The notes: generated by a model not told the origin, from the sequence alone. A stretch of DNA of 32,000 bases from Xylanibacter ruminicola 23 (GCF_000025925.1 NC_014033.1:2070001-2102000), one strand, 5' to 3'. Positions 17,803 to 32,000 are shown, numbered from the stretch's first letter. Program-made: numbers and translations.

Positions 17803-18384
17803 TCACGAACCTGTCCCTTGGCTTTTTGACTCATCCTTTTTCAACAACTCTATTAATTTATATACCCCAGTGGATGGGTTCTGCAACTCCTTAAGATTCA
17901 TTGCCCTTGCAGTTGCTGTATCAATATTGCTCTTCAAAAAAGCTTCTTGCGTATCAGTAAAGTCCGTCTTCGAATAATTCCTCCAAACAGTCGCACTCTT
18001 CTTTAGTTCTTTAATGAGCGCATCTGTCGAAATAGCACTCTTTTGATCTTTTGCATGAAGCAGTATCCATATCTCGAAACAAGGATTACTAAGCAGCATC
18101 TCAGCTTTGCATGCCAATAATTTCTCATTAATAGATGGTACATCCATGTCATACATCAGGAACGTGTGTACCTTATCATATTTTGAGAGCTTGAGTTCCC
18201 TAGTGCGATTGTCTACAAGAGACTGCGTAATTTTAGTTCCTTCAATATGCGACACGATTCTAATTGGCGACTTATACCACTTCTTCAGGAGGTTTATATA
18301 GCGTTCTTCTGTTTCGCCCTCGCAGATTACAAGAGCAATTTTGCGCATCCGCATGGATGGGGATGGTTCTCTTTTACTTGCCAT
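17803..18384 (-). CDS. RloB-like (Toprim-like) protein, AbiLii-like partner of the upstream ATPase
   Basis: N-terminal IALVICEGETEERYINLL and central LLSNPCFEIWILLHA match my recollection of the RloB family signature. The ATG at 18384 lies 2 nt after the ATPase stop. Confidence 0.75.
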   Translation of the reverse strand: MASKREPSPSMRMRKIALVICEGETEERYINLLKKWYKSPIRIVSHIEGTKITQSLVDNRTRELKLSKYDKVHTFLMYDMDVPSINEKLLACKAEMLLSNPCFEIWILLHAKDQKSAISTDALIKELKKSATVWRNYSKTDFTDTQEAFLKSNIDTATARAMNLKELQNPSTGVYKLIELLKKDESKSQGTGS

Positions 18385-18386
18385 AG

Positions 18387-19616
18387 TCAACCTTCCAATA
18401 ATTGTTTGATACTAGAAACCGATGAATCTACATATGGTACAGCATCAAAACGCCCCTGCAAATAGCCCTTTTCGGCATCCATATTCTCGCGAAAATCCTT
18501 AAAGTCGTATAGTGAATATACATCTGTCGCTCCCTCTTCAGTCTTATTCACAAACACAATCTGGTCACGTCTCAACCTCCTTACATCAATTAGGTTCGTA
18601 TTGTGCGAGGTAAACAGTAATTGACTACTTTCGGAAGCGTGAATCAAATCCAGGATAAAATCAGCAAGGCGAGTATGAAGTCCCATATCAAACTCGTCCA
18701 TGATAATGCCTTTCTTATTCTTCACAACATCCAGCAAACGGATAAGAATCTGGAACAACTTTCGTGTACCATTAGATTCTTCCATATCCATGTCGAACAT
18801 AACATCCTTCTGATTGCGGTGGAATGTCTTAAATCTAAGTACATCCACTAACTTATACGACATCTCTGGTTGCCCAGGAATAGCTACAGGGGCAGGTACC
18901 TGTTCCTTTCTTGCCTCTATATCAGTAATATCTGTATCGCTTATCTCCAGAGCCTTAAGGATAACCTTTTTGTAAGTATTAAAGCTATCCAGCATCATCA
19001 TATCATTTACATTCACAAGTCCAAGAAGGAACTGATTCATGAAATAGCGATAAAGCTTTTGAGCAATCTCACGATTCATAGAACTGGCACGACTAAGGAA
19101 AAGATTCTTCACGCTCGTATTAGTGGCAACATCCGAAGGCTTTACCATTACGCCGGTACCAAAGCTATATTTCCCCTCGGCGTCACGAACAAAAACTTTT
19201 GCCCTCCTACCAACAGGATAATAATACAGACTTTCACTAAGAATACGCTCGCGAGTAAGTTCAAAGGAATATTCGTATTCCACATCCTCACATACAAAAT
19301 CAATCAAGAATTTGCTTGGTTTATTCTGCCATCCATCAAACTTAAATGGCTCGAAATTAAAGGTCACGCCCTCATTATGTAGGTGCGACTCAAGAATCAT
19401 TCTACAGCAAAAAGTGATAGCTTTCAGGATATTTGACTTACCTGAAGCATTAGGGCCAAACAGCCCAATCGATTTAAGCACAGGCACACCTTTCCACTCC
19501 ATAACATTGTGACTCAGCTCTCGAGCAAGTGCTGTATTAATGCTTGCAGCCCTAAAGTCAATCCTGATTCTGTCTCTGATAGAGAAGAAATTCTCAAATT
19601 CGATTTTAAGTATCAT
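18387..19616 (-). CDS. AAA_21/ABC-type ATPase, AbiLi / PARIS AriA-like
   Basis: N-terminus MILKIEFENFFSIRD, Walker A GPNASGKSN, Walker B IIMDEFDMGLH, and downstream LLFTSHNTNLID. Start trimmed from the ORF-track TTG 19646 to ATG 19616. Confidence 0.8.
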   Translation of the reverse strand: MILKIEFENFFSIRDRIRIDFRAASINTALARELSHNVMEWKGVPVLKSIGLFGPNASGKSNILKAITFCCRMILESHLHNEGVTFNFEPFKFDGWQNKPSKFLIDFVCEDVEYEYSFELTRERILSESLYYYPVGRRAKVFVRDAEGKYSFGTGVMVKPSDVATNTSVKNLFLSRASSMNREIAQKLYRYFMNQFLLGLVNVNDMMMLDSFNTYKKVILKALEISDTDITDIEARKEQVPAPVAIPGQPEMSYKLVDVLRFKTFHRNQKDVMFDMDMEESNGTRKLFQILIRLLDVVKNKKGIIMDEFDMGLHTRLADFILDLIHASESSQLLFTSHNTNLIDVRRLRRDQIVFVNKTEEGATDVYSLYDFKDFRENMDAEKGYLQGRFDAVPYVDSSVSSIKQLLEG

Positions 19617-19643
19617 TACATCATTGATTTTGTAGATTTTCTG

Positions 19644-19651
19644 CAAAAATA
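19644..19651 (-). promoter_or_regulatory. -7 promoter box TATTTTTG upstream of the ATPase/RloB operon
   Basis: Plus strand caaaaata, reverse complement TATTTTTG, 28 nt upstream of ATG 19616. Confidence 0.45.
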
Positions 19652-20052: not shown

Positions 20053-21024
20053 TTAATTAGCACCCTCTTTATCTGAAGATTTATATAATAGGTAATACTT
20101 GTTAATTCGTCGGACTTTAAAAAACACAATTATTATTGTTGGCAATAAACCAATTGCCAATGGAACGCTTAATCCTAATAAAAATGACATAGAACGAAGA
20201 TTCATCCGCTTATATTGAAATACAGGAACATACCGTTTTCTAAATTCATCAATATTAATTTTTTTCGGTCGTAATTCAAGACAAAAATCTTTTATTGAAC
20301 GACTATTAAGTTCTATCATATTATCATCAGAAACCATACATGAATATTCCATTCCTGTTTCGCAATCTTTATAAATCACATCATCAGAATTATCGAATAG
20401 CAACACGCCTCCATAAAACAAAGACAAAACTATTACATTTGCTAAAACTAACAAATAAAAACGTCTCATCGGGATATAACTACGCAACTCATCCCCTTTT
20501 TCAACATCACATGTATTTTGAATACGATGAGAAAAAGTAATCTTGCGATGTAAGTCATTTAAGGAAGACAATTTCTTCTCATTCTCATATTCCACAAGTG
20601 CTTGGAGCTTTATATATTCATTAACACGAAATAAACCAAAACACAAAGAGGCATTTCTGTTGGTTTCATTTGTTATCGAGAATTGAGCATCAACACCCTC
20701 GGAACAAGAATCTATCTTAACATCTAACCACTTATAACCTTCTGGAAGACACATATGAACCACGTTATTACTTCCTGTCAAATCGGCATCACCATTACAA
20801 GAAATGATTCCACTCAGTAATATTACATTATTTCTTATTGGTTTGTCATTCTTAAGGACCTCTATACTATCAAAACCCTTGATCAAGTTCCAATATATAT
20901 TGATTGTTTCAGAAGGATAATATGTCAACTTGCATGGTCGACGCTTTCTCTTAAACAAATCAATAGATAAAACTCCAAAAACAATTGTCGCAATTAAACC
21001 AAGTATTCCAATAATCATTTCCAT
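20053..21024 (-). CDS. Hypothetical membrane protein with three predicted TM helices
   Basis: 323-aa ORF in very AT-rich DNA. Hydrophobic segments IIGILGLIATIVFGVLSIDLF, FYLLVLANVIVLSLFYGGVLLF and FLLGLSVPLAIGLLPTIIIVFF. No family recognised. Confidence 0.6.
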   Translation of the reverse strand: MEMIIGILGLIATIVFGVLSIDLFKRKRRPCKLTYYPSETINIYWNLIKGFDSIEVLKNDKPIRNNVILLSGIISCNGDADLTGSNNVVHMCLPEGYKWLDVKIDSCSEGVDAQFSITNETNRNASLCFGLFRVNEYIKLQALVEYENEKKLSSLNDLHRKITFSHRIQNTCDVEKGDELRSYIPMRRFYLLVLANVIVLSLFYGGVLLFDNSDDVIYKDCETGMEYSCMVSDDNMIELNSRSIKDFCLELRPKKINIDEFRKRYVPVFQYKRMNLRSMSFLLGLSVPLAIGLLPTIIIVFFKVRRINKYYLLYKSSDKEGAN

Positions 21025-21224
21025 CTATTCAGATATTAATACTATTAATTTAAAAAAATGCTACTAAATCAAAATGAAAGAACCAGCCCCTAAGGCATCT
21101 ATAAGTACCTGTATCATATCCGTAAATCCAAACATTCTCATTATTCGTAATACTCGTAGTCCCTTATTGATTTCCGATATCAGAAACTCTCCTCCATCCA
21201 TCTCCTAAAGAGAGGAAACGGCCA

Positions 21225-21503
21225 TCATTTCTCATAATACCCCTTTTCGCTATACTGAGACCAGCGGAGGTACATCTCTTGATAATGTTCCTTGATAAAC
21301 TCAGAGATTTTGGAAATCTCACGGTCATTGAGAATGCCGCGATTCTGGAGAACGGTATCACCGTTGTTCTTAACGAAGAATTTTGCTGATCCACCCTCGG
21401 TTAGCTTACTGTCACTAGCATGCACATGCATACACTCCACAACACAGAAAGAAGTAAAATACAAGTAATAACCTGCCACTTTAAAATCATAGTACTTCGG
21501 CAT
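21225..21503 (-). CDS. DUF4160-like small protein
   Basis: 92 aa. MP start, aromatic beta-strand region and the MHVHA His motif resemble DUF4160. Starts 3 nt after the preceding gene. Confidence 0.55.
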   Translation of the reverse strand: MPKYYDFKVAGYYLYFTSFCVVECMHVHASDSKLTEGGSAKFFVKNNGDTVLQNRGILNDREISKISEFIKEHYQEMYLRWSQYSEKGYYEK

Positions 21504-21506
21504 CGT

Positions 21507-21728
21507 TCAGTCCTCCATAAATTTAAGATTCTGTTTGAGGTAACGACTGGCTATGGATAGTTCGATATCGTCCATAGTAGTTTCCAGCACCTCACCATCC
21601 AAACTGAACACAACAGCCTTATCAGGACTGTTCAGGTTAAGCACATGTATACAATCATCCTTGCGGGTAAATGCATACCCATTAACAATTATATCTGCCC
21701 CATCGGCAATGCTCTTAATATCAGGCAT
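21507..21728 (-). CDS. Hypothetical small protein (73 aa)
   Basis: Tightly packed between the two neighbouring genes: 8-nt overlap upstream and 3-nt gap downstream. No family recognised. Confidence 0.5.
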   Translation of the reverse strand: MPDIKSIADGADIIVNGYAFTRKDDCIHVLNLNSPDKAVVFSLDGEVLETTMDDIELSIASRYLKQNLKFMED

Positions 21729-22029
21729 AAGCTATACGTACTTTTTTTATTGGTTTTAAAAAGGTTTCTGAATCGATATATAATCCCTCGAGAATTGGCT
21801 TCAAGTCAATGTACTCCTCCTCGGGTTCTGCATTATGGATATACTTGGCCAGCACCACCAGATAGCCATTATCCCACTTCACAACATCCACATACCTTTC
21901 CAAGCTATATGGTGCTTTGAAACGGATATGATACCCTCCAAAGCAGAAAGCAGTAAAGCCATCCGAATTACTAAGAATAGCTTCATTACTACAACTGGTA
22001 GAGTTTTTTGATATCGATGTTGTTACCAT
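21721..22029 (-). CDS. Hypothetical small protein (102 aa), first gene of a three-gene mini-operon
   Basis: ATG at 22029, preceded by a TATCTTTG box. Overlaps the next gene by 8 nt. No family recognised. Confidence 0.5.
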   Translation of the reverse strand: MVTTSISKNSTSCSNEAILSNSDGFTAFCFGGYHIRFKAPYSLERYVDVVKWDNGYLVVLAKYIHNAEPEEEYIDLKPILEGLYIDSETFLKPIKKVRIAYA

Positions 22030-22349: not shown

Positions 22350-23132
22350 TCATTCAATACACGCATTCAGAAAAAGTCTGCCAAAAGGCGTTAAGCGAAT
22401 AAAACTTTCCTCAACATCTATCGATTTAAACTTTTGGGGAACAAGTTCATTTCTTAAATCGTCTAACCCATTTTTCTTATTAATAGCATCATAGTTTTCC
22501 CTGTATATCTTATATTCACCAGACATATCTACGAGAAGCCCCAGGCTTATAAGATTATAAATATACGCATTCATATTTTGGGGAAATGTAATTTTCGCAT
22601 TATCATCCAGCAATGTCAAATGTTCTTTCAGTTTAACAAACCCTTCAGCATCATTCAAATTTGCATTGTAAGAACAATATTCCCAATCTCTTTTATACTG
22701 AAAGCATCTCATTATCCTCGCTTCATCTGGAGAGATTCTCTCTATAATTGATACAAAAGATGGGTGTGCAGTATTAACCATATCCACACTTGAAGCATTA
22801 GCCAACAAAGTTGTAAACATGTCGGCAATTTCTTCATTTGTTGTGTAAGTAAGCTTCTCAATAATTGGTGTTCCTAATTGGGGATGAACCTTACATCTCT
22901 TTTCCTCAGGAATCTTTTCCAATTTTTCTTTATAATCATCAAGATTCTTTTTAAAAGTCATTTTCAACTTCTCATTTTTCAACTTTAAAGGTAACAATAT
23001 TGCAGTACTAAACTCAAATACAGTACCTAAAGCATTACCAATGGCCCTCACACTTGGCTGTGCCAAATCTTTATAGATCTCTCCCAGAATATTTGGGGTT
23101 GCTTTTACTATGTCAACTATTTCATTTTCCAT
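22350..23132 (-). CDS. Abi-alpha (DUF4393) family abortive-infection-like protein
   Basis: 260 aa. The N-terminal region (IVDIVKATP...YKDLAQPSVRAIGNALGTVFEF...IPEEKRCKVHPQLGTPIIEKLTYTTNEEIADMFTTLLANAS) follows the Abi-alpha family pattern as I recall it. Starts 1 nt after the upstream gene. Confidence 0.7.
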   Translation of the reverse strand: MENEIVDIVKATPNILGEIYKDLAQPSVRAIGNALGTVFEFSTAILLPLKLKNEKLKMTFKKNLDDYKEKLEKIPEEKRCKVHPQLGTPIIEKLTYTTNEEIADMFTTLLANASSVDMVNTAHPSFVSIIERISPDEARIMRCFQYKRDWEYCSYNANLNDAEGFVKLKEHLTLLDDNAKITFPQNMNAYIYNLISLGLLVDMSGEYKIYRENYDAINKKNGLDDLRNELVPQKFKSIDVEESFIRLTPFGRLFLNACIE

Positions 23133-23133
23133 T

Positions 23134-23793
23134 TTATATTTTATCTCTATTGTTGATTGATTTTTTTACTGAATCTGGTAAGATTTCGTACAACGACTCG
23201 ATTTCTTTTGGTTCAGAAATCATACGTTCAGTAATCATATTAATAAGGTGCATTAACGTAATTGCAGTATTCATATCATCAACATCGAAAGATATCACAC
23301 CAGGGTGAACAGCTTTATTACCCACAACACGGACTACATCCAATGCTTGTTGAATGATCTTTGGAAGCCCTTTCATAACAAGAGCACCAATATTATTATT
23401 AATATCTCTATCTACTTCTCCAAGCTCATTACATAGTCTATCTATCGCCAAACGCAATAAAGCGCAAGCAGCCCTAGGAGACTTATTATATATAAGTCCA
23501 GCTTCATTGTAGAGTTGTTTCACCCTTTCGGGCATATCAACATTAGGTTCTTCAGCAATAATATCAGGATACACATAGGTATTGTTAACCCAGATAATCT
23601 TTTTCCCACAGCTAACACATCTTGCTATAGATAGTTGATTACTGTATTCTACTATATTACCGTCCTTTGTAAAGACATTACTAGTATCCTCATTAAAATA
23701 ATGAGTAGCCCAGGTCATTAATGACAAAGTATGGCAATGAGGACACGTAAAGGATTTCTTCCTTTTCTCTGGTGCGACATATAAATTTCTCAT
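23134..23793 (-). CDS. Zn-ribbon + DUF4145 (HEPN-like) domain protein
   Basis: N-terminal CPHC...(41 aa)...CVSCG cysteine pairs. DUF4145-like core PRAACALLRLAIDRLCNELG and an R-x2-GN-x3-H motif (VRVVGNKAVH). Confidence 0.65.
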   Translation of the reverse strand: MRNLYVAPEKRKKSFTCPHCHTLSLMTWATHYFNEDTSNVFTKDGNIVEYSNQLSIARCVSCGKKIIWVNNTYVYPDIIAEEPNVDMPERVKQLYNEAGLIYNKSPRAACALLRLAIDRLCNELGEVDRDINNNIGALVMKGLPKIIQQALDVVRVVGNKAVHPGVISFDVDDMNTAITLMHLINMITERMISEPKEIESLYEILPDSVKKSINNRDKI

Positions 23794-23835: not shown

Positions 23836-24273
23836 TCAAATCATCCCAAACAACTTTTCAGCCAGTCTCTTATTTGCTTCCTTCTGACCTATTGCATCCA
23901 AGTCATCATTATAATTTTTCTTTATCCATACCAGTTCGGCATTTATACTCTTGGCATAATTATCCAAAGCCTTACGTCCCCTCCCCTTTGTTCTTGTAAC
24001 AGTAAAAAGGATATCACAAGGATTCTGCTCAACAAACTGAATATTTGCTTTAACAATATCATCAGTATCTCCAGGAGGACATATATCCACAACGATTCCA
24101 TGTCTATCAACAGACTCACACATATCCTTATCTTTACCGAACTTCACTTCTGCATCAGAAATATTAATACCATGAAGCAGACTTCTAAGAAATATTCCTA
24201 GCGTCTCACTTTTCCCACATTTCCCTCTACCGTATAATCCAATAATCTTCATATATTTTTTGTTTTTTATCAT
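23836..24273 (-). CDS. Small P-loop NTPase-like protein (145 aa; start may be the second Met at 24252)
   Basis: Walker A GRGKCGKSE near the N-terminus and a candidate Walker B IVVDICPPGD. Lies 42 nt upstream of the DUF4145 gene. No family recognised. Confidence 0.55.
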   Translation of the reverse strand: MIKNKKYMKIIGLYGRGKCGKSETLGIFLRSLLHGINISDAEVKFGKDKDMCESVDRHGIVVDICPPGDTDDIVKANIQFVEQNPCDILFTVTRTKGRGRKALDNYAKSINAELVWIKKNYNDDLDAIGQKEANKRLAEKLFGMI

Positions 24274-24295: not shown

Positions 24296-24485
24296 AGAAA
24301 AAAAACCTATACTTCCAAATTAAATGCGCGAAAAATTGCTAAAATACGGCATAATATCGCTCCATCCGGGGCTTTTACTCTAAAATTTACAGCAAATTAA
24401 TCTCGATTACAAAGAGAATTCACCTTTTATTATTAAAAAAGCATTATTTTTATCCACAATCGCGAAGAATCTGAAGATTTTTATG

Positions 24486-24493
24486 TAATTTTG
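24486..24493 (+). promoter_or_regulatory. -7 promoter box TAATTTTG upstream of the M42 peptidase block
   Basis: taattttg lies 10 nt upstream of ATG 24503, which implies a very short leader. Confidence 0.4.
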
Positions 24494-24502
24494 CAAATTG
24501 AT

Positions 24503-25537
24503 ATGGAATCATGGTTGAAAGACATATTGCACAAGATGCTACTGACAGCAAGTCCGTCAGGCAGCGAAGAGCAAATCACAGCGCTCTTTGCTGAGCAGTT
24601 ACGTCCCTTTGTAGATGAAGTAACCACCGACGTCAATGGCAACTGCATTGCCCACAAACAGGGCACTGGGCCAAAAGTTATGATCATGGCGCATGCCGAT
24701 GAGATTGGCTTAATGATTAGTTACATTGATGATCGCGGTTTCCTATATTTCAAAGAAATTGGCGGTATCGACACAAATCTTCTCCCCGGTCAGCGTGTAA
24801 ATATCATGGGGCAGCAAGGCCTTGTAACAGGCGTTATAGGCAAGAAGCCCATACATCTTCAGGACAAATCCGAGAACACCAAGCAGCTCGAACCAGAAGA
24901 CCTTTGGATCGATATTGCCGCCAAAGATAAATCAGAAGCACAATCCAAGGTTCAGATTGGTGATGTAGCCACTCTCCAAGGAAATCCTGTACAACTTAAT
25001 GACACCCTTCTCATGTCCCGATCACTAGATGACAAAATCGGTTTGGCAGTCTTGATGGGTCTGGCACAGAATTTGCAGTCCCTGCAAACAGATAAGGACA
25101 TCTATTTAGTGGCCTCCGTACAGGAAGAATTAGGTGCACGCGGTGCAAAAATGATAACTGAGGCTATACGCCCAGATATAGGCATTGCCATTGATGTAAC
25201 CCATGCCACTGACTATCCCACCATGTCACCCACAAAAGATGGTGACATCAGCCTAGGCAAAGGTGCTGTCATCCCTATGGGGCCTAACATGAGTAAAGGT
25301 ATCAACCAGCAGCTCATCAGCTTGGCAAAATCCAATGGCATCCCCTATCAGATAGAGGCCATTGCCCGCCCCACAGGCACCGATGCCCGCGAGATACAGG
25401 TTGCCGGCACTGGCATCCGAACAGGATTGATCAGCATTCCCTGCCGATATATGCACACCCCTTCGGAAGTTGTATCATTGGCAGATGCAGATAGTGCAAT
25501 AACCCTATTGTCGGCTTATTTGCACACTCGAGAATAG
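24503..25537 (+). CDS. M42 family metallopeptidase (FrvX/YsdC-type aminopeptidase)
   Basis: SPSGSEE near the N-terminus, MAHADEIGLMI, SRSLDDKIG and VQEELGARGA are M42-type motifs. Start trimmed from TTG 24491 to ATG 24503. Confidence 0.8.
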   Translation: MESWLKDILHKMLLTASPSGSEEQITALFAEQLRPFVDEVTTDVNGNCIAHKQGTGPKVMIMAHADEIGLMISYIDDRGFLYFKEIGGIDTNLLPGQRVNIMGQQGLVTGVIGKKPIHLQDKSENTKQLEPEDLWIDIAAKDKSEAQSKVQIGDVATLQGNPVQLNDTLLMSRSLDDKIGLAVLMGLAQNLQSLQTDKDIYLVASVQEELGARGAKMITEAIRPDIGIAIDVTHATDYPTMSPTKDGDISLGKGAVIPMGPNMSKGINQQLISLAKSNGIPYQIEAIARPTGTDAREIQVAGTGIRTGLISIPCRYMHTPSEVVSLADADSAITLLSAYLHTRE

Positions 25538-25572
25538 ATAACATTATGTCAAACTAAAAAACGATTGAAAAG

Positions 25573-25683
25573 ATGAAAGAGAATTTTTCTATTTCTTTCG
25601 ATTGGGAAGTTAAGACAGCTGAAGATACAGAGCGCATAGGCGCCATGTACTGCTTCAAGCGCTGCGACGTAAACCAGAACTAA
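25573..25683 (+). CDS. Candidate RiPP precursor peptide (36 aa), absent from the ORF track
   Basis: ATG at 25573 to TAA at 25681-25683 translates to MKENFSISFDWEVKTAEDTERIGAMYCFKRCDVNQN. It has an acidic leader-like N-half and a C-terminal CxxxC. It lies about 100 nt upstream of an RRE+SPASM radical SAM gene. Confidence 0.5.
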   Translation: MKENFSISFDWEVKTAEDTERIGAMYCFKRCDVNQN

Positions 25684-25730
25684 TCCCCTGATCAAGGATT
25701 AGCTTTACCAGCAGCATTATCCCAATTGGG

Positions 25731-25763
25731 TTGAGGTGACAGCAGAGACTGGTGTCACCTCAA
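25731..25763 (+). terminator. Perfect 11-bp hairpin (attenuator or terminator candidate) between the peptide ORF and the radical SAM gene
   Basis: TTGAGGTGACA (25731-25741) and TGTCACCTCAA (25753-25763), with an 11-nt loop, followed by TTATTAAATTT. Confidence 0.5.
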
Positions 25764-25786
25764 TTATTAAATTTGAACCACATGAC

Positions 25787-27124
25787 ATGAGGCAGCATTC
25801 TCAACTACAAAGCACCGACCACCTCATCTTTCCTGATGAGATTATTTTCCGACCATGCGATGAAGGATGGTTGGTTATTTCTGTGCTTACTGCCAACTGG
25901 TTGGTCATAAAATCTAACTTTCAAAAACATCTTCTACAACAGTTGATTAATGGCCACTCTATTGGCGAAGTCTATACATCTTTGCAAACCCAAGACGAAC
26001 AGACTCAATTCAAGCAACTTCTGGCTGCTATCACCGCCCGTAGTTTCGCAGGTATCAACACTGCCCCAGTTTCTCAGTACTTAGAGGGTTATCGCATGCT
26101 TAACATCTACCTCACCAATGCCTGTAATCTGCGATGCGAGCACTGTTTCATGCGCTCAGGTAAGCCATTAGACAACGAACTACCAAAGACAGAGTGGCTT
26201 CGCATCCTTACCGAGTTTCAACACCAGGGAGGTAAAAGTGTAACTTTTTCTGGAGGAGAGCCTCTGATGAACCGCGATTTTAACGACATCCTTATACATG
26301 CATCAACACTTGGTTTAGAAACCACAGTGCTATCTAATGGCATCCTTTGGACCGAGGATCGCATTAATCAGCTCGCCCCATATATCAGTCAGATACAGAT
26401 TAGCATAGATGGTTTCGACGAGGCCTCCAATGCCAAGGTGAGAGGTAAAGGACATTTCGACCGAATTGTGCATAACGTCATACTCTTCGCTAACACAGGT
26501 GCCCGCACATCTGTAGCCACCACCTTTACATTCCAGAATCTCCAGTACGATGCAGCCGAGCGTTATCAGCAGATGGTTAGTTACATCAAGAACCAATGTC
26601 AGCACTCAGTATTCTTCAAACTCAGCAAGAAGGTACTTCAAGGACGCAACACTCACTACACTGAAGCTCAGAACAAGGAGTTTTTCATGCGTATTATGGA
26701 AATTGAGCACGCCTTAGATCCTGATGCCAAGTATAATAACTTCATGGAAGGTCATACCCCTAATCTAATTGAGCGCAACTGTGGCTTTGGCGGTATCTCC
26801 ATAGGTGCCGATGGCGAGGTGTATTATTGCAATCGCATCTCTGAGGTCGATAGCTATGGTAATATCAATGGCAGACCGATAAAACCATTTATGGAAAAAG
26901 GCCATCAGCTCCACCTGCAAACTTCGGTCGATAATCTCATCCCCTGCCGTACTTGCCATCTGCGTTTTATCTGCTGTGGTGGCTGCCGCATTGACGAATG
27001 CAACTTCCAAGGCAAGCTTCAAAACCATACTGGAGCACTTCGACAGGTAAAATGTAACGATGACCAAATACACCGTATGGAACGCAAGATGATAGATAGT
27101 TATTTATTTTATTACAAATTCTAG
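25787..27124 (+). CDS. Radical SAM / SPASM-domain peptide-modifying enzyme with N-terminal PqqD-like RRE
   Basis: CX3CX2C motif NACNLRCEHCF. C-terminal Cys-rich SPASM-like region CGFGG...YYCN...CRTCHLRFICCGGCRIDEC. The N-terminal ~90 aa (GWLVISVLTANWLVIKSNFQKHLLQQLINGHSIGEVY) look like a PqqD/RRE fold. Start set to ATG 25787, because the ORF-track GTG at 25736 lies inside the hairpin. Confidence 0.8.
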   Translation: MRQHSQLQSTDHLIFPDEIIFRPCDEGWLVISVLTANWLVIKSNFQKHLLQQLINGHSIGEVYTSLQTQDEQTQFKQLLAAITARSFAGINTAPVSQYLEGYRMLNIYLTNACNLRCEHCFMRSGKPLDNELPKTEWLRILTEFQHQGGKSVTFSGGEPLMNRDFNDILIHASTLGLETTVLSNGILWTEDRINQLAPYISQIQISIDGFDEASNAKVRGKGHFDRIVHNVILFANTGARTSVATTFTFQNLQYDAAERYQQMVSYIKNQCQHSVFFKLSKKVLQGRNTHYTEAQNKEFFMRIMEIEHALDPDAKYNNFMEGHTPNLIERNCGFGGISIGADGEVYYCNRISEVDSYGNINGRPIKPFMEKGHQLHLQTSVDNLIPCRTCHLRFICCGGCRIDECNFQGKLQNHTGALRQVKCNDDQIHRMERKMIDSYLFYYKF

Positions 27125-27128
27125 ACCT

Positions 27129-29366
27129 ATGATATATCGGTTACTTTGCATCTACGAAACATACGGAAACAGCACCATCCCTCAACTCCGTATCGAAGTC
27201 AATCTGGATGGCAAGAGTTCCTCTTTGGCACCTTTCCAACGCAAGGTAACACTTAGCGACCTTCTGGCCGATGCATCCACAAATGGGCTCCACCCCTCAG
27301 CGCTATGCCAACTAATAAACCATGCAGGCCTTATCAGCCAACCATTCTGTATTGACAGCAGGCTTGTTTGTCACCCGCTTGTTCAGCGCATACTCCAGGA
27401 TCATCCCTATTCTTATGTTAAAGCCACCCCAAAATCCAGCCTCAAGCGCATCGCTAATCCACCTTCTTTCATCCATCCATCGTCTATCGTTTCAAATCTC
27501 GCATCATCCGTTCCATCAGGAGTTCTCTATATAGATAATCCCGCTTCGTGGCACCGCAACATCAAAGTACGTTTTCACTATAACGATGCACTCAGTGATT
27601 TCTATCCCACATACTCACCTCTCCCATATCTTTCTAGCTTAGGTTCGCTCATGCAGCGCAACGAACAGGCAGAAATCGAGCTCTTGAATATGTTAGGCGA
27701 GGATTACAATTCTGCCACAGCCACATTATCATTTAAGGATACAGATACCGAGAGTCTCGCAGAACTCACTAAAAAAGGCTGGACACTCTACGTATCCAGC
27801 CCCAACAAAGCCGCATATAGGCTGTATTACCATCACGAATCATCAGGCATCAACTGGTTCTCTACCGATCAAGATGTTGACCAATCCGAGTTTGCCCATC
27901 AACTCCTTGATGGCTATCTCCATCGTCGCAACTATCATGAGTACGATGGACATATAATATTGTTCAAGAAAGAGGATGCCACGATATCTGATGACAAGAC
28001 ATTGGCTCAGCAGTTAGATGCTTCCTTCGATGTACGTCAACTATATGCCGATTCCCTACCACTCACTAATGCCGAGATAAATGACATTAAAACGACTCTT
28101 ACTAATCAGCTACACGCAACACTGCGCCCCTATCAACTTGATGGAGTTATGTGGTTGCAGCAACAACGTAAAAACAATCATGGTTGCCTCTTAGCTGATG
28201 AGATGGGCCTTGGCAAAACCATTCAGATTATTGCCCATCTATGTTGTTTGGGTAATGATAGACAGCACCTGATAATTGCCCCCACCTCTTTAATATATAA
28301 TTGGCAGAACGAGGTTAGTAGGTTTGCGCCGCAATTATTACAACAGCTCACCTTTGTAAGTTACGATATGCTGCGCATACATCTTTATGAATATCTGCCA
28401 GTGTTTTACGATACAATTATAATCGACGAGGCTCAAGTGATAAAGAATCGTCAAACCAAGAAATATCAGGCCATTAGCCAATTACATTGTAAACACAAGA
28501 TAATCCTTACAGGCACTCCTATCGAGAATTCCATTGATGAGCTTTGGTCGCATTTCATCATGCTCATGCCCCCTATGCAGTCACTCTATCATCACTTGCA
28601 TGCATTGGGTATTCAAGCTGTGCCCGAGGTATATATCACTCTATCCAGCAAGTTTCTAAAGCCTTTCATACTTCGTAGAGAAAAGCAAATGGTACTACAA
28701 GATTTGCCAGACCGTATTGAGAAGACTGTATATATTGAACTTAACGAATCCGAACGAATCAAATATAAACAGGTGCATGCCACTATACTCCAAGCATTCG
28801 CTTCAGGAATAAGTGGCCGTATTAGTAGTTTGGCCTTAGAGGGCCTTCTTCGTTTACGCCAGGCTTGCATCGCTCCTAAGTACCAAACAGTTATCGACTA
28901 TATTGAGACGTTTCGTTCTGAGGGGCGCAAGGTTTTACTTTTCTCTCAATTTGTCAGCGCACTTCACGAGTTAGAGGCACGTTTGTCATCAGCAGACATT
29001 CACTTTGTAACTCTATATGGAGACACCCGTAATCGCGACATCCCTGTACGCCAGTTCCAAAGCGATTCTTCTATCACTGTATTCCTTATCAGCCTTAAGG
29101 CTGGTGGTTTCGGCCTCAATCTCACCTCTGCCGATCGAGTTATTCTTTTAGACGACTGGTGGAATCCTGCAGTCGAAGACCAAGCCATGGCACGTGCTCA
29201 TCGCATCGGCCAGAAGAACAATGTTCTTGTTCTCCGATTAGTCTGCAAAGACACTGTCGAAGAAAAAATTCTTCAACTTCAAGCTCAAAAGCGCCAAACC
29301 GTCGATCTCTTCAACAACACCTCAGAGAAGCTAACTTTAGAAGAGATTCAAGCCCTGATTACCTAG
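27129..29366 (+). CDS. SNF2-family helicase/translocase with bacterial SNF2-associated N-terminal region
   Basis: LRPYQLDGVMWL, LLADEMGLGKTIQ, DEAQVIKN, LTGTPIEN and SLKAGGFGLNLTSADRVILLDDWWNPAVEDQAMARAHRIGQ. The N-terminal part includes a GINWF...DGHIILF segment like the SNF2_assoc domain. Starts 4 nt after the radical SAM stop. Confidence 0.88.
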   Translation: MIYRLLCIYETYGNSTIPQLRIEVNLDGKSSSLAPFQRKVTLSDLLADASTNGLHPSALCQLINHAGLISQPFCIDSRLVCHPLVQRILQDHPYSYVKATPKSSLKRIANPPSFIHPSSIVSNLASSVPSGVLYIDNPASWHRNIKVRFHYNDALSDFYPTYSPLPYLSSLGSLMQRNEQAEIELLNMLGEDYNSATATLSFKDTDTESLAELTKKGWTLYVSSPNKAAYRLYYHHESSGINWFSTDQDVDQSEFAHQLLDGYLHRRNYHEYDGHIILFKKEDATISDDKTLAQQLDASFDVRQLYADSLPLTNAEINDIKTTLTNQLHATLRPYQLDGVMWLQQQRKNNHGCLLADEMGLGKTIQIIAHLCCLGNDRQHLIIAPTSLIYNWQNEVSRFAPQLLQQLTFVSYDMLRIHLYEYLPVFYDTIIIDEAQVIKNRQTKKYQAISQLHCKHKIILTGTPIENSIDELWSHFIMLMPPMQSLYHHLHALGIQAVPEVYITLSSKFLKPFILRREKQMVLQDLPDRIEKTVYIELNESERIKYKQVHATILQAFASGISGRISSLALEGLLRLRQACIAPKYQTVIDYIETFRSEGRKVLLFSQFVSALHELEARLSSADIHFVTLYGDTRNRDIPVRQFQSDSSITVFLISLKAGGFGLNLTSADRVILLDDWWNPAVEDQAMARAHRIGQKNNVLVLRLVCKDTVEEKILQLQAQKRQTVDLFNNTSEKLTLEEIQALIT

Positions 29367-29367
29367 A

Positions 29368-29706
29368 TTACAAATTCTCCTTCACATAGATTGCCACACT
29401 GATTCGTTTATTTTCATCAGCTTTTTCATCAAAACGACAGACTTTACATAGGAACAACTTATTATCATTCCATCCTGCCTCTAAAAACTTCTTAATGTCT
29501 ATCGCATCATTTTTATTCAGAACGCCAATTTTTTTTGCATCCTCCGGATTTTGAGCTTGAGTGTAAAGTGACACTTCCTTCCCGTCTTCATTAACATCCA
29601 ATTTGAAAAGAAAATTTGTTCCTAATTCTTTTATTTCCTTTAAAACCTCTAGTGCCTGGAACTGGTTAGTTTTTTCCAAATAACATTCTTTCAAATATAT
29701 ATCCAT
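29368..29706 (-). CDS. Hypothetical 112-aa protein co-transcribed with the deaminase (weak HIRAN-like resemblance)
   Basis: Starts 11 nt after the deaminase stop. The segment VSLYTQAQNPEDAKKIGVLNKNDAIDIKKFLEAG...RISVAIYV loosely recalls the HIRAN pattern (NPxD, IGxL, basic/hydrophobic C-terminal strand). This is a low-certainty call. Confidence 0.5.
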   Translation of the reverse strand: MDIYLKECYLEKTNQFQALEVLKEIKELGTNFLFKLDVNEDGKEVSLYTQAQNPEDAKKIGVLNKNDAIDIKKFLEAGWNDNKLFLCKVCRFDEKADENKRISVAIYVKENL

Positions 29707-29717
29707 AATTTCAATAA

Positions 29718-32000
29718 TTAATGTTTAAACCTTTGCTCTAATGACATTTGACGTACACGATCAAGCCAGTCAACGATAGCCCTGGGTGAATTCTTATGAT
29801 TCTCTGTCTGATTCCATTCTAAAGCCAATGCTAATAAAGAATATTCTCTTTCCAAAGATGTTGAAAACACGCCCTGATCATCAGTATTAATGGACACTGC
29901 AATATCGTGACGAGGATAAGGTGTAGAAAGCCCATAGTTAAAAAACTTCACTATAGGATGTTCATCGTAACGTTCTATCTCGCCAATCTTGTAGTTGGAT
30001 GAAGGATTGCATTCGATGGCAATATGCCTATTTTCAATCTTTTCTAACAATTGTTCCTGTATTTTTTCAAGCAATCTTACCCACTCTTCCCTATAATCTA
30101 GAGGAATTGTTAGAGTATCACCAACATTCCCCTTATCTGCATATCTATCAGAATGATATGCATCGTAAAGTCGTTTTGCGCGTTCGTTGCGTAGTGCGAC
30201 CTCAGTCCATTCATGATGATTGATGGCTGCCTTAACCCAAAGATAATCAATACCAGTCAAACTATTAAGATTCTTTGGTTCTAGATCCACACCAATTTTA
30301 GGAGAATGGCCTCTTAACAACCATGATAAGTAATAGTCCCGTATATCATCCGATAGTTCATCTTCATTTTCTTCTGTAAAAAAGGAATCAATGATGCTCT
30401 CACCTTCTTCCTCGTGATTCCTGTATATTTCTGTAAAATACTTCAAGAACATAATCTCTAACCACCCACATAGCTGTGTATATCCTGTCAAACGAATGCA
30501 TTTATGGTAAAGCCAAGCAAGATTATCCAACACGACCTGTTTACTTGCACAGATAGAGAAGCTACGCTTTGTATAATACTTAAGCACATCTGTTCCAAGA
30601 ACAAGAGCGTGGCCTAATCTGTCTCCATTCTTCAAATTTAGGAATATAAGCGCTTCTTCCACTGCTCTTAATCCATCTGCTATATCCATAAAATCCTCAC
30701 CTATATGATAAGTAACGTTTAGGTCGTCAGGATAACTATCCACATTATTATCATTCTCGATTTTATGAGATCTAAGAAATCTAAAAGCCTGCGCATACAC
30801 TTCTGGTCGGCAGAATATCTCAGAATTGGCAGCATCTAAGCCAACCACTTTACCTACCAGACAATTACCGTCTTTCCAATTATCCTTGTTACACCTAAAC
30901 TGATATATAGCATAAGCCTGTCTTTTTATTTGCTGGCGCAGATCATAATGCCTATATGATTTGTTTTTCCTCTCATCTCGCTGTTTAATAAAATGGAATA
31001 TAAAATCATAGTTATCAGTATATTTAGGATCTATCTCTTTACATATATCATTAAGCATTTTCACTATACCTGCTTCGGTTTCTTTGGGTACAATTCTAGC
31101 CTCCAAATGTCGCTGGTTATTTTTATCCTTTTCCAAAAAGCCTTCTATGGCAGCTTTGTATAGCAGATGATAATATTCATCTTGTATGAAATCTGTTTTC
31201 TTCTCTTCATAACTGGCAAAGTTAGCAAAGCCTACACGTTCATTAAGCTGCAGAATGTCATTTCTAAAGTAATTCTTATATGCCAAATATGCAAAGAAAA
31301 GAGTCGCAAGGTCCTGCTTTTCATTCGTTTTATCATTAAATAAGGTTTTAAATACCATATACATTAATTTTCTCTCCGAAGCAAGAACTTTGTTTTCAAT
31401 AGACTCACCACTATAATGACTAATAGGTATATAATCTAGGACGTCTAATTCAGTCAGATTATCTTTAATGTTGGGATTTGTTTTCAACTTATTAAACTCC
31501 TCAATACTTTTCACTTGATTGCATTTCCTTGCTTCACTAACTAACCCAAATACATCTACCGGCTCTTGACTCTTAGTTTTATCGTAGGTAACGTTATTCA
31601 ACTCATTACATAATTGGCCTAATGTAATTATCTCTTTCACACAGCCTACGGCTCCTGCCAAATAATAGCGGATAAGTGCCGCCTTTCGCATCTTCTCATA
31701 TAAGTCCTTATCGCTATCTCTATATTTATGGAATGGATACTCCTTCTCAAAGTGGCGCTGCATACACCAAATATTATTCATCATGCATTGCCAACTCAAA
31801 TCGAAATTAAACGACGAACCCTTCAAATGCATATGGAGTTCCGCCATAGGCTTTTCAAAAAGGAAGTTAAGTTCTTTGCTGTTATGGCCCAAGAATGCAT
31901 CCCAATCAAAACTCTTACGTTCATATTCTATGGCCAAGTCTCTTGAAGCCAAGAAAGAAGTTGTCAGTAAATCCTCCCCGACCAACGTTGTTAGCAGATG
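29718..32000 (-). CDS. Giant adenosine/AMP-deaminase-fold protein, RdrB (RADAR)-like; 5' end outside the window
   Basis: Ordered metal-dependent deaminase motifs ELHMHLKGS, TYHIGEDF, RLGHAL, ECNPSSN and SINTDDQGVF. About 390 aa separate HxH from HxGE, against about 200 in canonical ADA. The ORF-track start is TTG at 31985, but the frame stays open to 32000 (HLLTT upstream). Confidence 0.8.
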   Translation of the reverse strand, partial: HLLTTLVGEDLLTTSFLASRDLAIEYERKSFDWDAFLGHNSKELNFLFEKPMAELHMHLKGSSFNFDLSWQCMMNNIWCMQRHFEKEYPFHKYRDSDKDLYEKMRKAALIRYYLAGAVGCVKEIITLGQLCNELNNVTYDKTKSQEPVDVFGLVSEARKCNQVKSIEEFNKLKTNPNIKDNLTELDVLDYIPISHYSGESIENKVLASERKLMYMVFKTLFNDKTNEKQDLATLFFAYLAYKNYFRNDILQLNERVGFANFASYEEKKTDFIQDEYYHLLYKAAIEGFLEKDKNNQRHLEARIVPKETEAGIVKMLNDICKEIDPKYTDNYDFIFHFIKQRDERKNKSYRHYDLRQQIKRQAYAIYQFRCNKDNWKDGNCLVGKVVGLDAANSEIFCRPEVYAQAFRFLRSHKIENDNNVDSYPDDLNVTYHIGEDFMDIADGLRAVEEALIFLNLKNGDRLGHALVLGTDVLKYYTKRSFSICASKQVVLDNLAWLYHKCIRLTGYTQLCGWLEIMFLKYFTEIYRNHEEEGESIIDSFFTEENEDELSDDIRDYYLSWLLRGHSPKIGVDLEPKNLNSLTGIDYLWVKAAINHHEWTEVALRNERAKRLYDAYHSDRYADKGNVGDTLTIPLDYREEWVRLLEKIQEQLLEKIENRHIAIECNPSSNYKIGEIERYDEHPIVKFFNYGLSTPYPRHDIAVSINTDDQGVFSTSLEREYSLLALALEWNQTENHKNSPRAIVDWLDRVRQMSLEQRFKH

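Follow-up and report, generated by a model that had tools for sequence, protein, structure and literature searches.

Radical SAM maturases of peptides that are made by ribosomes and modified after translation (RiPPs), exemplified by SkfB, StsB, CteB (SCIFF), SuiB and PapB, share a characteristic organization: a short cysteine-containing precursor is encoded directly upstream, a hairpin follows the precursor gene, and the enzyme carries an N-terminal domain resembling the RiPP recognition element (RRE), a CX3CX2C motif and a SPASM domain with seven cysteines. All of these features, the RRE-like domain as a probable one, recur in a 5-kb block of the Xylanibacter ruminicola 23 chromosome, contained in a 32,000-nucleotide stretch (NC_014033.1:2070001-2102000; hereafter the window, from whose first letter all positions are counted), where the maturase gene is directly followed by that of a SNF2-family ATPase. 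Taken together with the genes that accompany it, this block (hereafter the cassette) on balance probably represents a single conflict system, most likely anti-phage, that is built on a ribosomal peptide. The best sequence and structure matches of its radical SAM enzyme are SkfB, StsB, CteB and SuiB. In contrast to the systems of these RRE-containing maturases, however, the cassette has no exporter or immunity genes, its peptide core is invariant across phyla, and it has an obligatory SNF2 partner that is found in none of them.

Two cofactor pathways follow a comparable logic. In the biosynthesis of pyrroloquinoline quinone (PQQ; PqqA/D/E/F) and mycofactocin (MftA/B/C/E), and probably also in the cassette, the precursor has a conserved C-terminus, an RRE is combined with a radical SAM/SPASM enzyme, a peptidase liberates the modified C-terminal part and there is no export. 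However, tailoring enzymes of the PqqB/C or MftD/F type and dependent oxidoreductases are absent from the conserved neighbours of the cassette, and the PqqE and MftC profiles score far under their cutoffs. The partners here are instead a DNA motor and a deaminase, and the distribution is that of islands and mobile elements.

Among defence systems, the cassette resembles RADAR in that its deaminase is homologous to RdrB over its whole length with the catalytic motifs kept, and in its defence-island setting. It differs from RADAR in the absence of RdrA from the window and from nearly all other loci, the SNF2 protein being the sole ATPase, and in the possession of an additional peptide-maturation branch and a small, tentatively HIRAN-like protein. 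The intact SNF2 motor is akin to ZorD (Zorya), DpdE (Dpd), DrmD (DISARM) and BrxHII (BREX), which match its C-terminal 420 aa, whereas the partners of these proteins (ZorABC, DpdA-K, DrmABC and PglZ/X) lie outside the cassette, its N-terminal domain is unique, and flanking BREX genes are not conserved.

The nearest published idea that was found concerns the vWA-MoxR (VMAP) conflict systems, for which “peptide-processing systems” comprising a short peptide, a metallopeptidase and a radical SAM-SPASM enzyme have been predicted (Kaur, Burroughs, Iyer and Aravind, 2020; PMC7159879). These systems, which are known by prediction only, occur mainly in multicellular bacteria and are marked by FxSxx, RxD and acidic motifs (PMC7159879). 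The cassette has another peptide motif, another peptidase and SNF2 in place of vWA/MoxR; vWA or MoxR genes were seen in no cassette locus, and the deaminase is absent from VMAP systems. PADLOC 2.0, NCBIfam 20.0 and Pfam hold no model for the peptide, the radical SAM family or the SNF2 N-terminal domain. Literature searches, whose coverage lacked many subscription-journal papers so that a prior description is possible, found no account of the system, and the peptide system is not mentioned by Sberro et al. (10.1101/494179). Made of known kinds of parts, the system as a whole looks undescribed.

Conservation and gene orders of the cassette

The initial annotation of the window described five plus-strand parts, an M42 peptidase, a 36-aa open reading frame (ORF), a perfect hairpin, a radical SAM enzyme and a SNF2 ATPase, and proposed that a peptide maturase is here coupled to a DNA motor. 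An ORF listing and profile searches recovered all five in this order and in the same places. The nearest genome, that of X. ruminicola D31d, has the block at 89-92% protein identity, and a megablast search of Escherichia coli genomes with the 5-kb block gave no match. Loci for comparison were gathered from one genome per species, metagenomes, exact-protein look-ups and viral contigs. Synteny was counted over 38 distinct near-full-length radical SAM sequences (34-100% identity), with only those loci evaluated that had sufficient flank.

The SNF2 gene lies immediately 3′ of the radical SAM gene in 36/36 evaluable distinct loci, at enzyme identities down to 34%, so that the proposed coupling holds and the expectation that would have counted against it, radical SAM orthologues rarely adjoining SNF2 genes, is contradicted. 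A peptide gene (31-43 aa) is present 5′ of the radical SAM gene in all 36, and an M42 gene precedes the peptide in 33 of 34 evaluable loci, the exception being the Nautilia-like locus L048. The trio of peptide, radical SAM and SNF2 genes persists even where the radical SAM enzymes are 34% and the SNF2 N-terminal domains ~25% identical, and cassette genes in distant lineages have overlapping stop and start codons. Strict synteny at 34% radical SAM identity, combined with selection on the peptide (see below), excludes the alternative raised at the outset, that unrelated genes were packed together by chance.

Downstream of the block in the window are two minus-strand genes that encode a small protein of 112 aa (29368-29706) and an RdrB-like adenosine deaminase (29718-32000). 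The window ends inside the deaminase gene, whose frame stays open up to that point; relatives have ~880 aa. The initial annotation took this right flank for a separate defence cassette, but it proves to be a conserved partner. A deaminase gene adjoins the block in 26 of 30 counted loci; of the others, three fall at contig ends or in a truncated copy, and the remaining one, L048, is without deaminase. In every sufficiently long Bacteroidales locus both the deaminase and the small protein are linked to the block, across radical SAM identities of 46-100% and unrelated flanks. Their position varies. In addition to the convergent arrangement of the window (order A), the genes may run deaminase, small protein, M42, peptide, radical SAM, SNF2 (order B) or M42, peptide, radical SAM, SNF2, deaminase, small protein (order C). 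Genes abut or overlap in orders B and C, as in the 20-nt overlap of the small protein and M42 genes in L005 and the 8-nt gap between SNF2 and deaminase genes in L009, and the flanks vary between loci. Linkage that is kept under rearrangement is a classical sign of a functional unit. The deaminase and the small protein belong to the system beyond the parts that were first annotated, and the M42 peptidase is integral to it.

Two of the most distant relatives of the SNF2 protein (~25% identity) again have an overlapping radical SAM gene and a peptide of the same core in front of them, from which the universal core of the system is peptide, radical SAM enzyme and SNF2 motor. Around it are lineage-specific additions: M42, deaminase and small protein, or an M17 aminopeptidase and a pentapeptide-repeat protein, or others. 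The second combination is that of the Nautilia-like loci L048 (9137-15582) and L096, which encode the peptide, a radical SAM enzyme (34% identical), SNF2, a pentapeptide-repeat protein and M17, without M42 or deaminase. The ribosomal protein S12 of this variant clusters with those of Nautilia and other Campylobacterales. Short contigs (L099-L103) show only peptide, radical SAM and SNF2 genes. One of these, from a fourth lineage with a G+C content of 49%, has a defence-type neighbourhood in which the trio is followed by a mad2-like protein of methyltransferase fold and a PDC-S31-like protein (L101:4997-6801).

As is usual for defence genes, decayed copies of the cassette occur (L032, L046, L051, L054 and L056), and a mobile-element context, with integrase, RteC and MobC, is seen in L006-8. 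Several further loci are distinguished by what has been inserted in or around the cassette. The loci of Phocaeicola vulgatus type (L051-L056) form a hot spot with BREX genes on one side (BrxC/PglY, a PglX-type methylase, PglZ, a BrxHII-like helicase and a BrxA-like protein) and a DUF6361/PLD/helicase set on the other; within it, L051 is without M42, the SNF2 gene of L054 is split and the deaminase of L056 is truncated. A PDC-M29A-like AAA_15 ATPase and a 193-aa protein are inserted between SNF2 and the small protein in L017 (13617-15435), and likewise in L019 and L020, one defence system being nested inside another. L041 (13627-19361) lacks the small protein and has, between SNF2 and deaminase, genes for a 227-aa protein that weakly resembles PycC and for an RdrA-like ATPase of 839 aa; it may stand as an intermediate between canonical RADAR and the cassette.

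Components of the cassette and its surroundings

The precursor peptide of the window (MKENFSISFDWEVKTAEDTERIGAMYCFKRCDVNQN; 25573-25683) is the most conserved component, with identities of 61-97% where the enzymes have 40-92%, and is kept in all loci. Its N-terminal half, the presumptive leader, is variable but retains a hydrophobic I-S-F-x-W-type motif. The C-terminal core, R-[VIAL]-G-A-M-Y-C-F-K-x-C-x-x-N-x-N followed by the stop codon, is practically invariant, including Cys27, Cys31 and the terminal Asn, and persists in four deep lineages, most of the changes in its DNA being synonymous. The peptides that accompany two of the most distant SNF2 relatives, from two further lineages, end in ...TRAGAMYCFKSCEANQN and ...SRVGAMYCFKNCSANQN and have the same core. 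The last 17 codons exist in 29 DNA versions, in which 5, 5 and 16 sites vary at codon positions 1, 2 and 3, respectively, and pairwise comparison gives 2831 synonymous against 521 non-synonymous codon differences. This pattern and the excess of synonymous changes indicate that the peptide is translated and under strong purifying selection; lack of conservation of the 36-aa ORF, which would have undermined the initial annotation, is thereby contradicted. An RNA element in place of a peptide was also considered for the conserved stretch and rejected, as the codon-position pattern speaks against it. A Pfam “HEWD” match of the peptide, at 16 bits against a cutoff of 27, was taken as chance, and the literature gave no support for it. 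The P. vulgatus variant, annotated as “hypothetical protein”, is indexed in 5397 blocks of an assembly collection, which indicates that the system is abundant in the human gut.

Two hairpins follow the core. The perfect hairpin noted initially after the peptide ORF was confirmed as a small element of 7 bp over the peptide stop codon (25680-25702, plus strand), and its sequence CTAATCCCCTGATCAAGGATTA is identical in L002 and L006 despite radical SAM identities of 59-67%. To it is added a stronger stem-loop (11+3 bp, 25731-25763) that leads into a U-rich run (to 25776); situated between the genes for peptide and maturase, it looks like a terminator or attenuator and has a folding z-score of -2.7. 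A strong stem-loop with a U-run is found after the peptide gene in every clade although the sequences are unrelated, with z-scores of -3 to -4 in four of five other loci folded and -0.8 in L012. Beyond the smaller hairpin, the non-coding bases after the stop codon (AGAAYTAATCCCCTGATCAAGGATTA) are near-identical in the window (25676-25702), L002 (5886-5912) and L006 (8888-8914), which, given the same divergence of the radical SAM enzymes, suggests a further element at the RNA level such as a processing or ribosome-related site.

The maturase gene (25787-27124, plus strand) encodes 445 aa. Because all 120 listed homologues have ~445 aa, its start is ATG 25787 and not GTG 25736, a codon that sits within the second hairpin. 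The gene itself stands as annotated, as does its CX3CX2C motif (CNLRCEHC). The three cluster cysteines (C113, C117 and C120) are invariant in 16 relatives and the radical SAM domain is matched by PF04055 with an E-value of 2e-23. The Cys-rich SPASM C-terminus that had been proposed is borne out by seven invariant cysteines (C332, C348, C387, C390, C396, C400 and C423, with a CX2CX5CX3C spacing) and by Pfam SPASM (PF13186) matches in 11 of 16 relatives, though not in the window protein itself. For the proposed PqqD-like recognition element the signals diverge. Pfam PqqD (PF05402) matches 0 of 16 family members, but the AlphaFold model has an RRE-like topology at about residues 15-85, with three strands followed by three helices at 19-84 (pLDDT, the model's local confidence score, ~90; 76 for the whole enzyme). 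The best Foldseek matches of this model are SkfB, SuiB, CteB and TigE over 400-470 columns, the SuiB and CteB alignments spanning 440-468, and a family profile searched against PDB finds SkfB and CteB, the CteB alignment (residues 18-430) running from the recognition domain through SPASM. Together these matches support the prediction that the enzyme is an RRE-containing maturase of RiPP type. The best NCBIfam scores are 134 bits for StsB (cutoff 625) and 95 for SkfB (cutoff 300), followed by the SCIFF maturase (65 against 425) and PapB (63 against 340). As all named families score below their cutoffs, the enzyme belongs to a separate, uncurated radical SAM family.

The M42 (TET-type) aminopeptidase gene (24503-25537, plus strand) is open from TTG 24491 and probably starts at ATG 24503. 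Its product matches PF05343 over positions 1-292 of 292 (E 2e-95) and is no equivalog of any named aminopeptidase in NCBIfam. We propose that it trims the peptide from the N-terminus. In L048 its place is taken by an M17 leucyl aminopeptidase (PF00883, E 1e-88), and the exchange of M42 for a non-homologous exopeptidase argues that N-terminal trimming belongs to the pathway. The -7 promoter box of Bacteroides has the consensus TAnnTTTG, and TAATTTTG at 24485-24492, just upstream of ATG 24503, fits it; the closeness of the two suggests that the leader of the operon transcript is very short.

The SNF2 gene (745 aa; 27129-29366, plus strand) begins with ATG 27129, 4 nt past the radical SAM stop codon as initially described. 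PF00176 and PF00271 match its product, and the helicase motifs, including GLGKT and DEAQ, are intact in the window protein and 20 relatives. The AlphaFold model has a pLDDT of 82, and the N-terminal 320 aa (27129-28088) are folded confidently. The initial annotation had suggested a search for SNF2_assoc (PF08455), which did not match; the N-terminal 320 aa belong to no Pfam family, and in eight relatives Pfam searches at E-values up to 5 gave only scattered chance matches. The N-terminal domain has just 36 relatives among 1.84 billion representatives. It stands at the N-terminus of those with 726-788 aa, which are presumably full-length, and the shorter matches look like fragments. On this sequence evidence the domain is exclusive to the family. 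Foldseek matches of the whole model, ZorD among them, are confined to the ATPase core, and the DpdE, ZorD and DrmD profiles of PADLOC and NCBIfam likewise align with the helicase core alone (~320-745), far under their cutoffs.

The deaminase is matched by PF00962 and by the NCBIfam RdrB model (E 5e-48), the latter at 164 bits against an equivalog cutoff of 800. In the PDB, relatives at E<1e-3 are confined to the RADAR RdrB structures 8fnv, 8fnw and 8hr7 (E 3e-27), with a collinear alignment, and the motifs HxHLxGS, TYHVGEDF, DRLGH and DDxGxF are kept. No RdrA match was obtained among the cassette proteins, the sole RdrA-like gene in the loci being that of L041 (46 bits). The small protein (100-130 aa across loci) is always encoded behind the deaminase gene and stays beside it in the three gene orders. 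Pfam HIRAN (PF08797) matches 10 of 23 members, weakly (best E 1.7e-4) and without the window member, and no other family recurs. A PDB profile search gave no match and hhalign against an HLTF HIRAN sequence an E-value of 0.046 (probability 1%); since neither is significant, the HIRAN assignment stays a tentative lead.

The window surrounding these genes is chromosomal Bacteroidales DNA. Genes for nuo subunits and for mannan utilisation (a GH26/GH130 set) occupy its first 17.5 kb; from ~17.6 kb the G+C content falls and defence genes start, so that the left of the two flanking defence cassettes originally proposed is real. The left edge of this low-G+C island is formed by a two-gene AbiL system on the minus strand (17803-19646), AbiLii with 195 aa (PADLOC E 2e-22) and AbiLi with 419 aa (4e-81). 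This pair is followed on the same strand, at 22350-23793, by PDC-S47 (Abi_alpha, E 2e-99) and PD-T7-4 (DUF4145, E 6e-71), which are separated by 1 nt and may act jointly. Minus-strand ORFs at 20053-22029 and 23836-24273 have no family match. They comprise a protein of 323 aa for which membrane segments are predicted, three small ORFs (92, 73 and 102 aa) that abut or overlap, and a protein of 145 aa whose motif GRGKCGKSET is like G-x-x-G-K-[ST].

Phage-borne copies of the precursor

Scanning of IMG/VR with back-translated core patterns yielded 40 genuine loci and two chance matches. In these 40 phage or prophage loci (L057-L087, L094, L095, L104-L106, L108, L109, L111 and L112; IMG/VR and Logan contigs) the peptide occurs without the radical SAM enzyme, SNF2 protein, aminopeptidase or deaminase of the cassette. 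Its neighbours include an integrase beside host genes, DNA polymerase, primase-helicase, a Sak4-like protein, dUTPase, DNA methyltransferases, terminase and portal. The phage versions differ from each other by 774 synonymous and 97 non-synonymous changes, their core thus being under purifying selection, and their leaders match the presumed host lineage: most are Bacteroidales-like, and those of three low-G+C contigs are Nautilia-like (K-I-x-I-K-I-K-K-R). A tblastn search of GenBank phages with a phage-type peptide gave no match, the copies being known solely from contigs of these collections.

The phage copies are set apart by their C-termini. Of the 40 phage loci, 36 have changes in the final two residues, against 0 of 62 cellular loci; the latter end in [Q/E/R]-N, and L021 in K-N. 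Altered ends are QT, FM, VD, VN, IN, KN and QK, and four phage loci retain the cellular ...QN. Each main type has its own companions. In the QT type a GNAT acetyltransferase gene always lies directly 3′ (L062:656-2451 and 17 similar loci), and in 8 of these 18 loci (9 with the shorter copy of L077) a 361-aa Cfr/RlmN-like radical SAM enzyme comes next, of which an 87-nt remnant is present elsewhere. Wherever a QT locus extends far enough, a DUF4406 gene comes after the GNAT or radical SAM gene. In the FM and VN types every locus that reaches past the peptide encodes a 125-aa protein with NSGGCCY and GKHYC motifs downstream (L078:12888-13271, L094:8108-8485 and others like them), possibly a small Cys/His enzyme. 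None of these partners (GNAT, Cfr/RlmN-like, DUF4406 or 125-aa protein) was seen in cellular loci.

Two other explanations of these copies were rejected. They are not artefacts of prophage junctions, as they lie inside phage gene arrays with conserved partners of their own and have diverged mostly synonymously. Nor do phages often carry the full system: the full cassette is present in one 18-kb “viral” contig alone, which has the same size and identity as the cellular locus L021 and looks cellular.

A phage that holds only the small regulatory component of a host system has a parallel in pseudo-ToxI, the phage mimic of an antitoxin RNA. In contrast to that case, the copied component is here a RiPP-type precursor, most copies are C-terminally altered, and their partners are a GNAT, in some loci joined by the Cfr/RlmN-like enzyme, or the 125-aa protein. 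Their distribution makes the phage copies candidate anti-defence modules that would work by precursor mimicry, as decoys.

A proposed mechanism and its alternatives

The role in defence that was initially suggested is supported by the island contexts and by the phage-borne copies of the peptide. Within such a system, what would the peptide do? In the boldest reading, which is possible though somewhat less likely than not, immunity would be RiPP-controlled: a cross-linked, trimmed peptide would serve in the cell as obligatory ligand to arm or gate the SNF2 motor, which would act on the RdrB-type deaminase, and phages of two phyla would disarm the pathway with C-terminally altered mimics that their own enzymes make or modify. 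The favoured chain of events, on balance probable, is as follows; we infer each of its biochemical steps and the sign of the peptide's action.

The first step can partly be read from the loci themselves. As a terminator-like hairpin stands between the peptide and maturase genes, the peptide gene is expected to be transcribed in excess of the enzymes; a hairpin behind the precursor gene is a common route by which RiPP precursors are over-expressed relative to their enzymes. Judging by its relatives, the radical SAM/SPASM enzyme would then use its RRE to bind the leader with the I-S-F-x-W motif, and the invariant GAMYCFKxCxxNxN core would be cross-linked through its two cysteines, most likely by thioether bridges because these are what the nearest families suggest. 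An aminopeptidase, M42 or in another phylum M17, would trim the leader until blocked by the cross-link, leaving a C-terminal macrocycle with a free ...N-x-N end. This product may be a dedicated ligand, a cofactor or licensing signal, of the SNF2 N-terminal domain. In Bacteroidales the motor would operate with the small protein, which as a HIRAN-like protein could bind DNA ends, and with the deaminase, which by analogy with RADAR might turn (d)ATP into (d)ITP and abort infection. The distribution of the phage precursors, which combine leader and core with changed ends and an enzyme of their own, is consistent with products that jam or mis-feed the pathway.

Several points weigh against this scheme. 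The core is far better conserved than the SNF2 N-terminal domain (24-35% identity between lineages). Such a gap is no less expected of a product under chemical constraint, or of a universal target, than of a receptor that co-evolves. In the Nautilia-like loci the deaminase is missing, a pentapeptide-repeat protein is present, and rpoC-rpsL-rpsG-fusA, with its ribosomal genes, adjoins in place of an obvious island; neither a deaminating output nor an island setting is therefore universal. The HIRAN assignment of the small protein is weak, and the phage copies could be agonists, as antitoxin mimics are, instead of antagonists.

This last possibility is developed in the first alternative, which reverses the sign of the peptide. 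As an antitoxin-like inhibitor of the SNF2/deaminase effector, made labile by the dedicated aminopeptidase, it would be depleted when phage shuts off the host, whereupon the effector fires, and the phage copy would silence it. The phage copies do keep leader and core under purifying selection as if they were matured and bound a partner, and four retain the cellular ...QN end; the hairpin implies high, continuous expression of the peptide, and the operon includes an exopeptidase that could be degradative. However, 36 of the 40 copies alter residues that are never altered in cells, which an antagonist explains better than a faithful mimic, and aminopeptidases have precedents in RiPP maturation, namely BotP (M17) and AplP (M1). 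We regard an inhibitory peptide as unlikely, if still the best of the alternatives.

Somewhat less probable again is that two systems share common hot spots, the peptide, radical SAM enzyme, aminopeptidase and SNF2 motor being one unit and the deaminase with its small protein another, RADAR-like and independent. The sub-blocks do shift relative to each other in the three gene orders, other defence genes are inserted between them (L017, L019 and L020), the deaminase of L041 is accompanied by an RdrA-like ATPase, and the first unit occurs without deaminase in the Nautilia-like lineage and as the trio alone on the short contigs L099-L103. Against this, both units are present in every Bacteroidales locus with enough sequence, despite radical SAM identities of 46-100% and unrelated flanks, and in orders B and C their genes abut or overlap, with 20 nt shared in L005 and a gap of 8 nt in L009. 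An independent deaminase would moreover, with no RdrA, be without a known activator.

A RiPP toxin with self-immunity is very unlikely. Like microcin B17 or albicidin, the peptide would poison a DNA enzyme, and the SNF2 protein and the Nautilia pentapeptide-repeat protein would clear the resulting complexes, in bacterial competition or abortive killing. Pentapeptide-repeat folds do serve as immunity or protection factors (McbG, AlbG and Qnr), and an aminopeptidase that frees a C-terminal warhead would resemble microcin C processing. But no locus encodes an exporter, an ABC transporter or a leader-cleaving export peptidase, the core is invariant and not diversifying, and both the island setting and the phage copies point to conflict with phage. 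The weakest alternative, in which defence plays no part and the peptide yields a cofactor for a DNA-remodelling enzyme of housekeeping function, would suit a core that is extremely conserved from phylum to phylum, as in cofactor precursors, the PQQ- or mycofactocin-like logic of peptide, RRE-radical SAM/SPASM enzyme and peptidase, and the Nautilia-like locus beside ribosomal genes, but is hardly credible given the patchy, strain-variable distribution on islands and mobile elements, the decayed copies, the lack of oxidoreductase or tailoring genes and the altered copies in phages.

If the RiPP-controlled scheme is true, it would be the first case of RiPP chemistry used in intracellular immune signalling, and the first of precursor-peptide mimicry as a means of anti-defence. 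The logic of immunity would be new, the modified peptide being internal to a helicase/deaminase system and not a secreted antibiotic. It would give a testable function to an uncharacterised radical SAM/SPASM family and to a bacterial SNF2 family whose N-terminal domain is its own, and it would show that RdrB-type deaminases can work without RdrA. As candidates for anti-defence genes, the phage copies of the peptide would give experiments a clear read-out. Given its abundance in the gut, the cassette may shape the dynamics between phages and Bacteroidales, with relevance to phage therapy and microbiome engineering.

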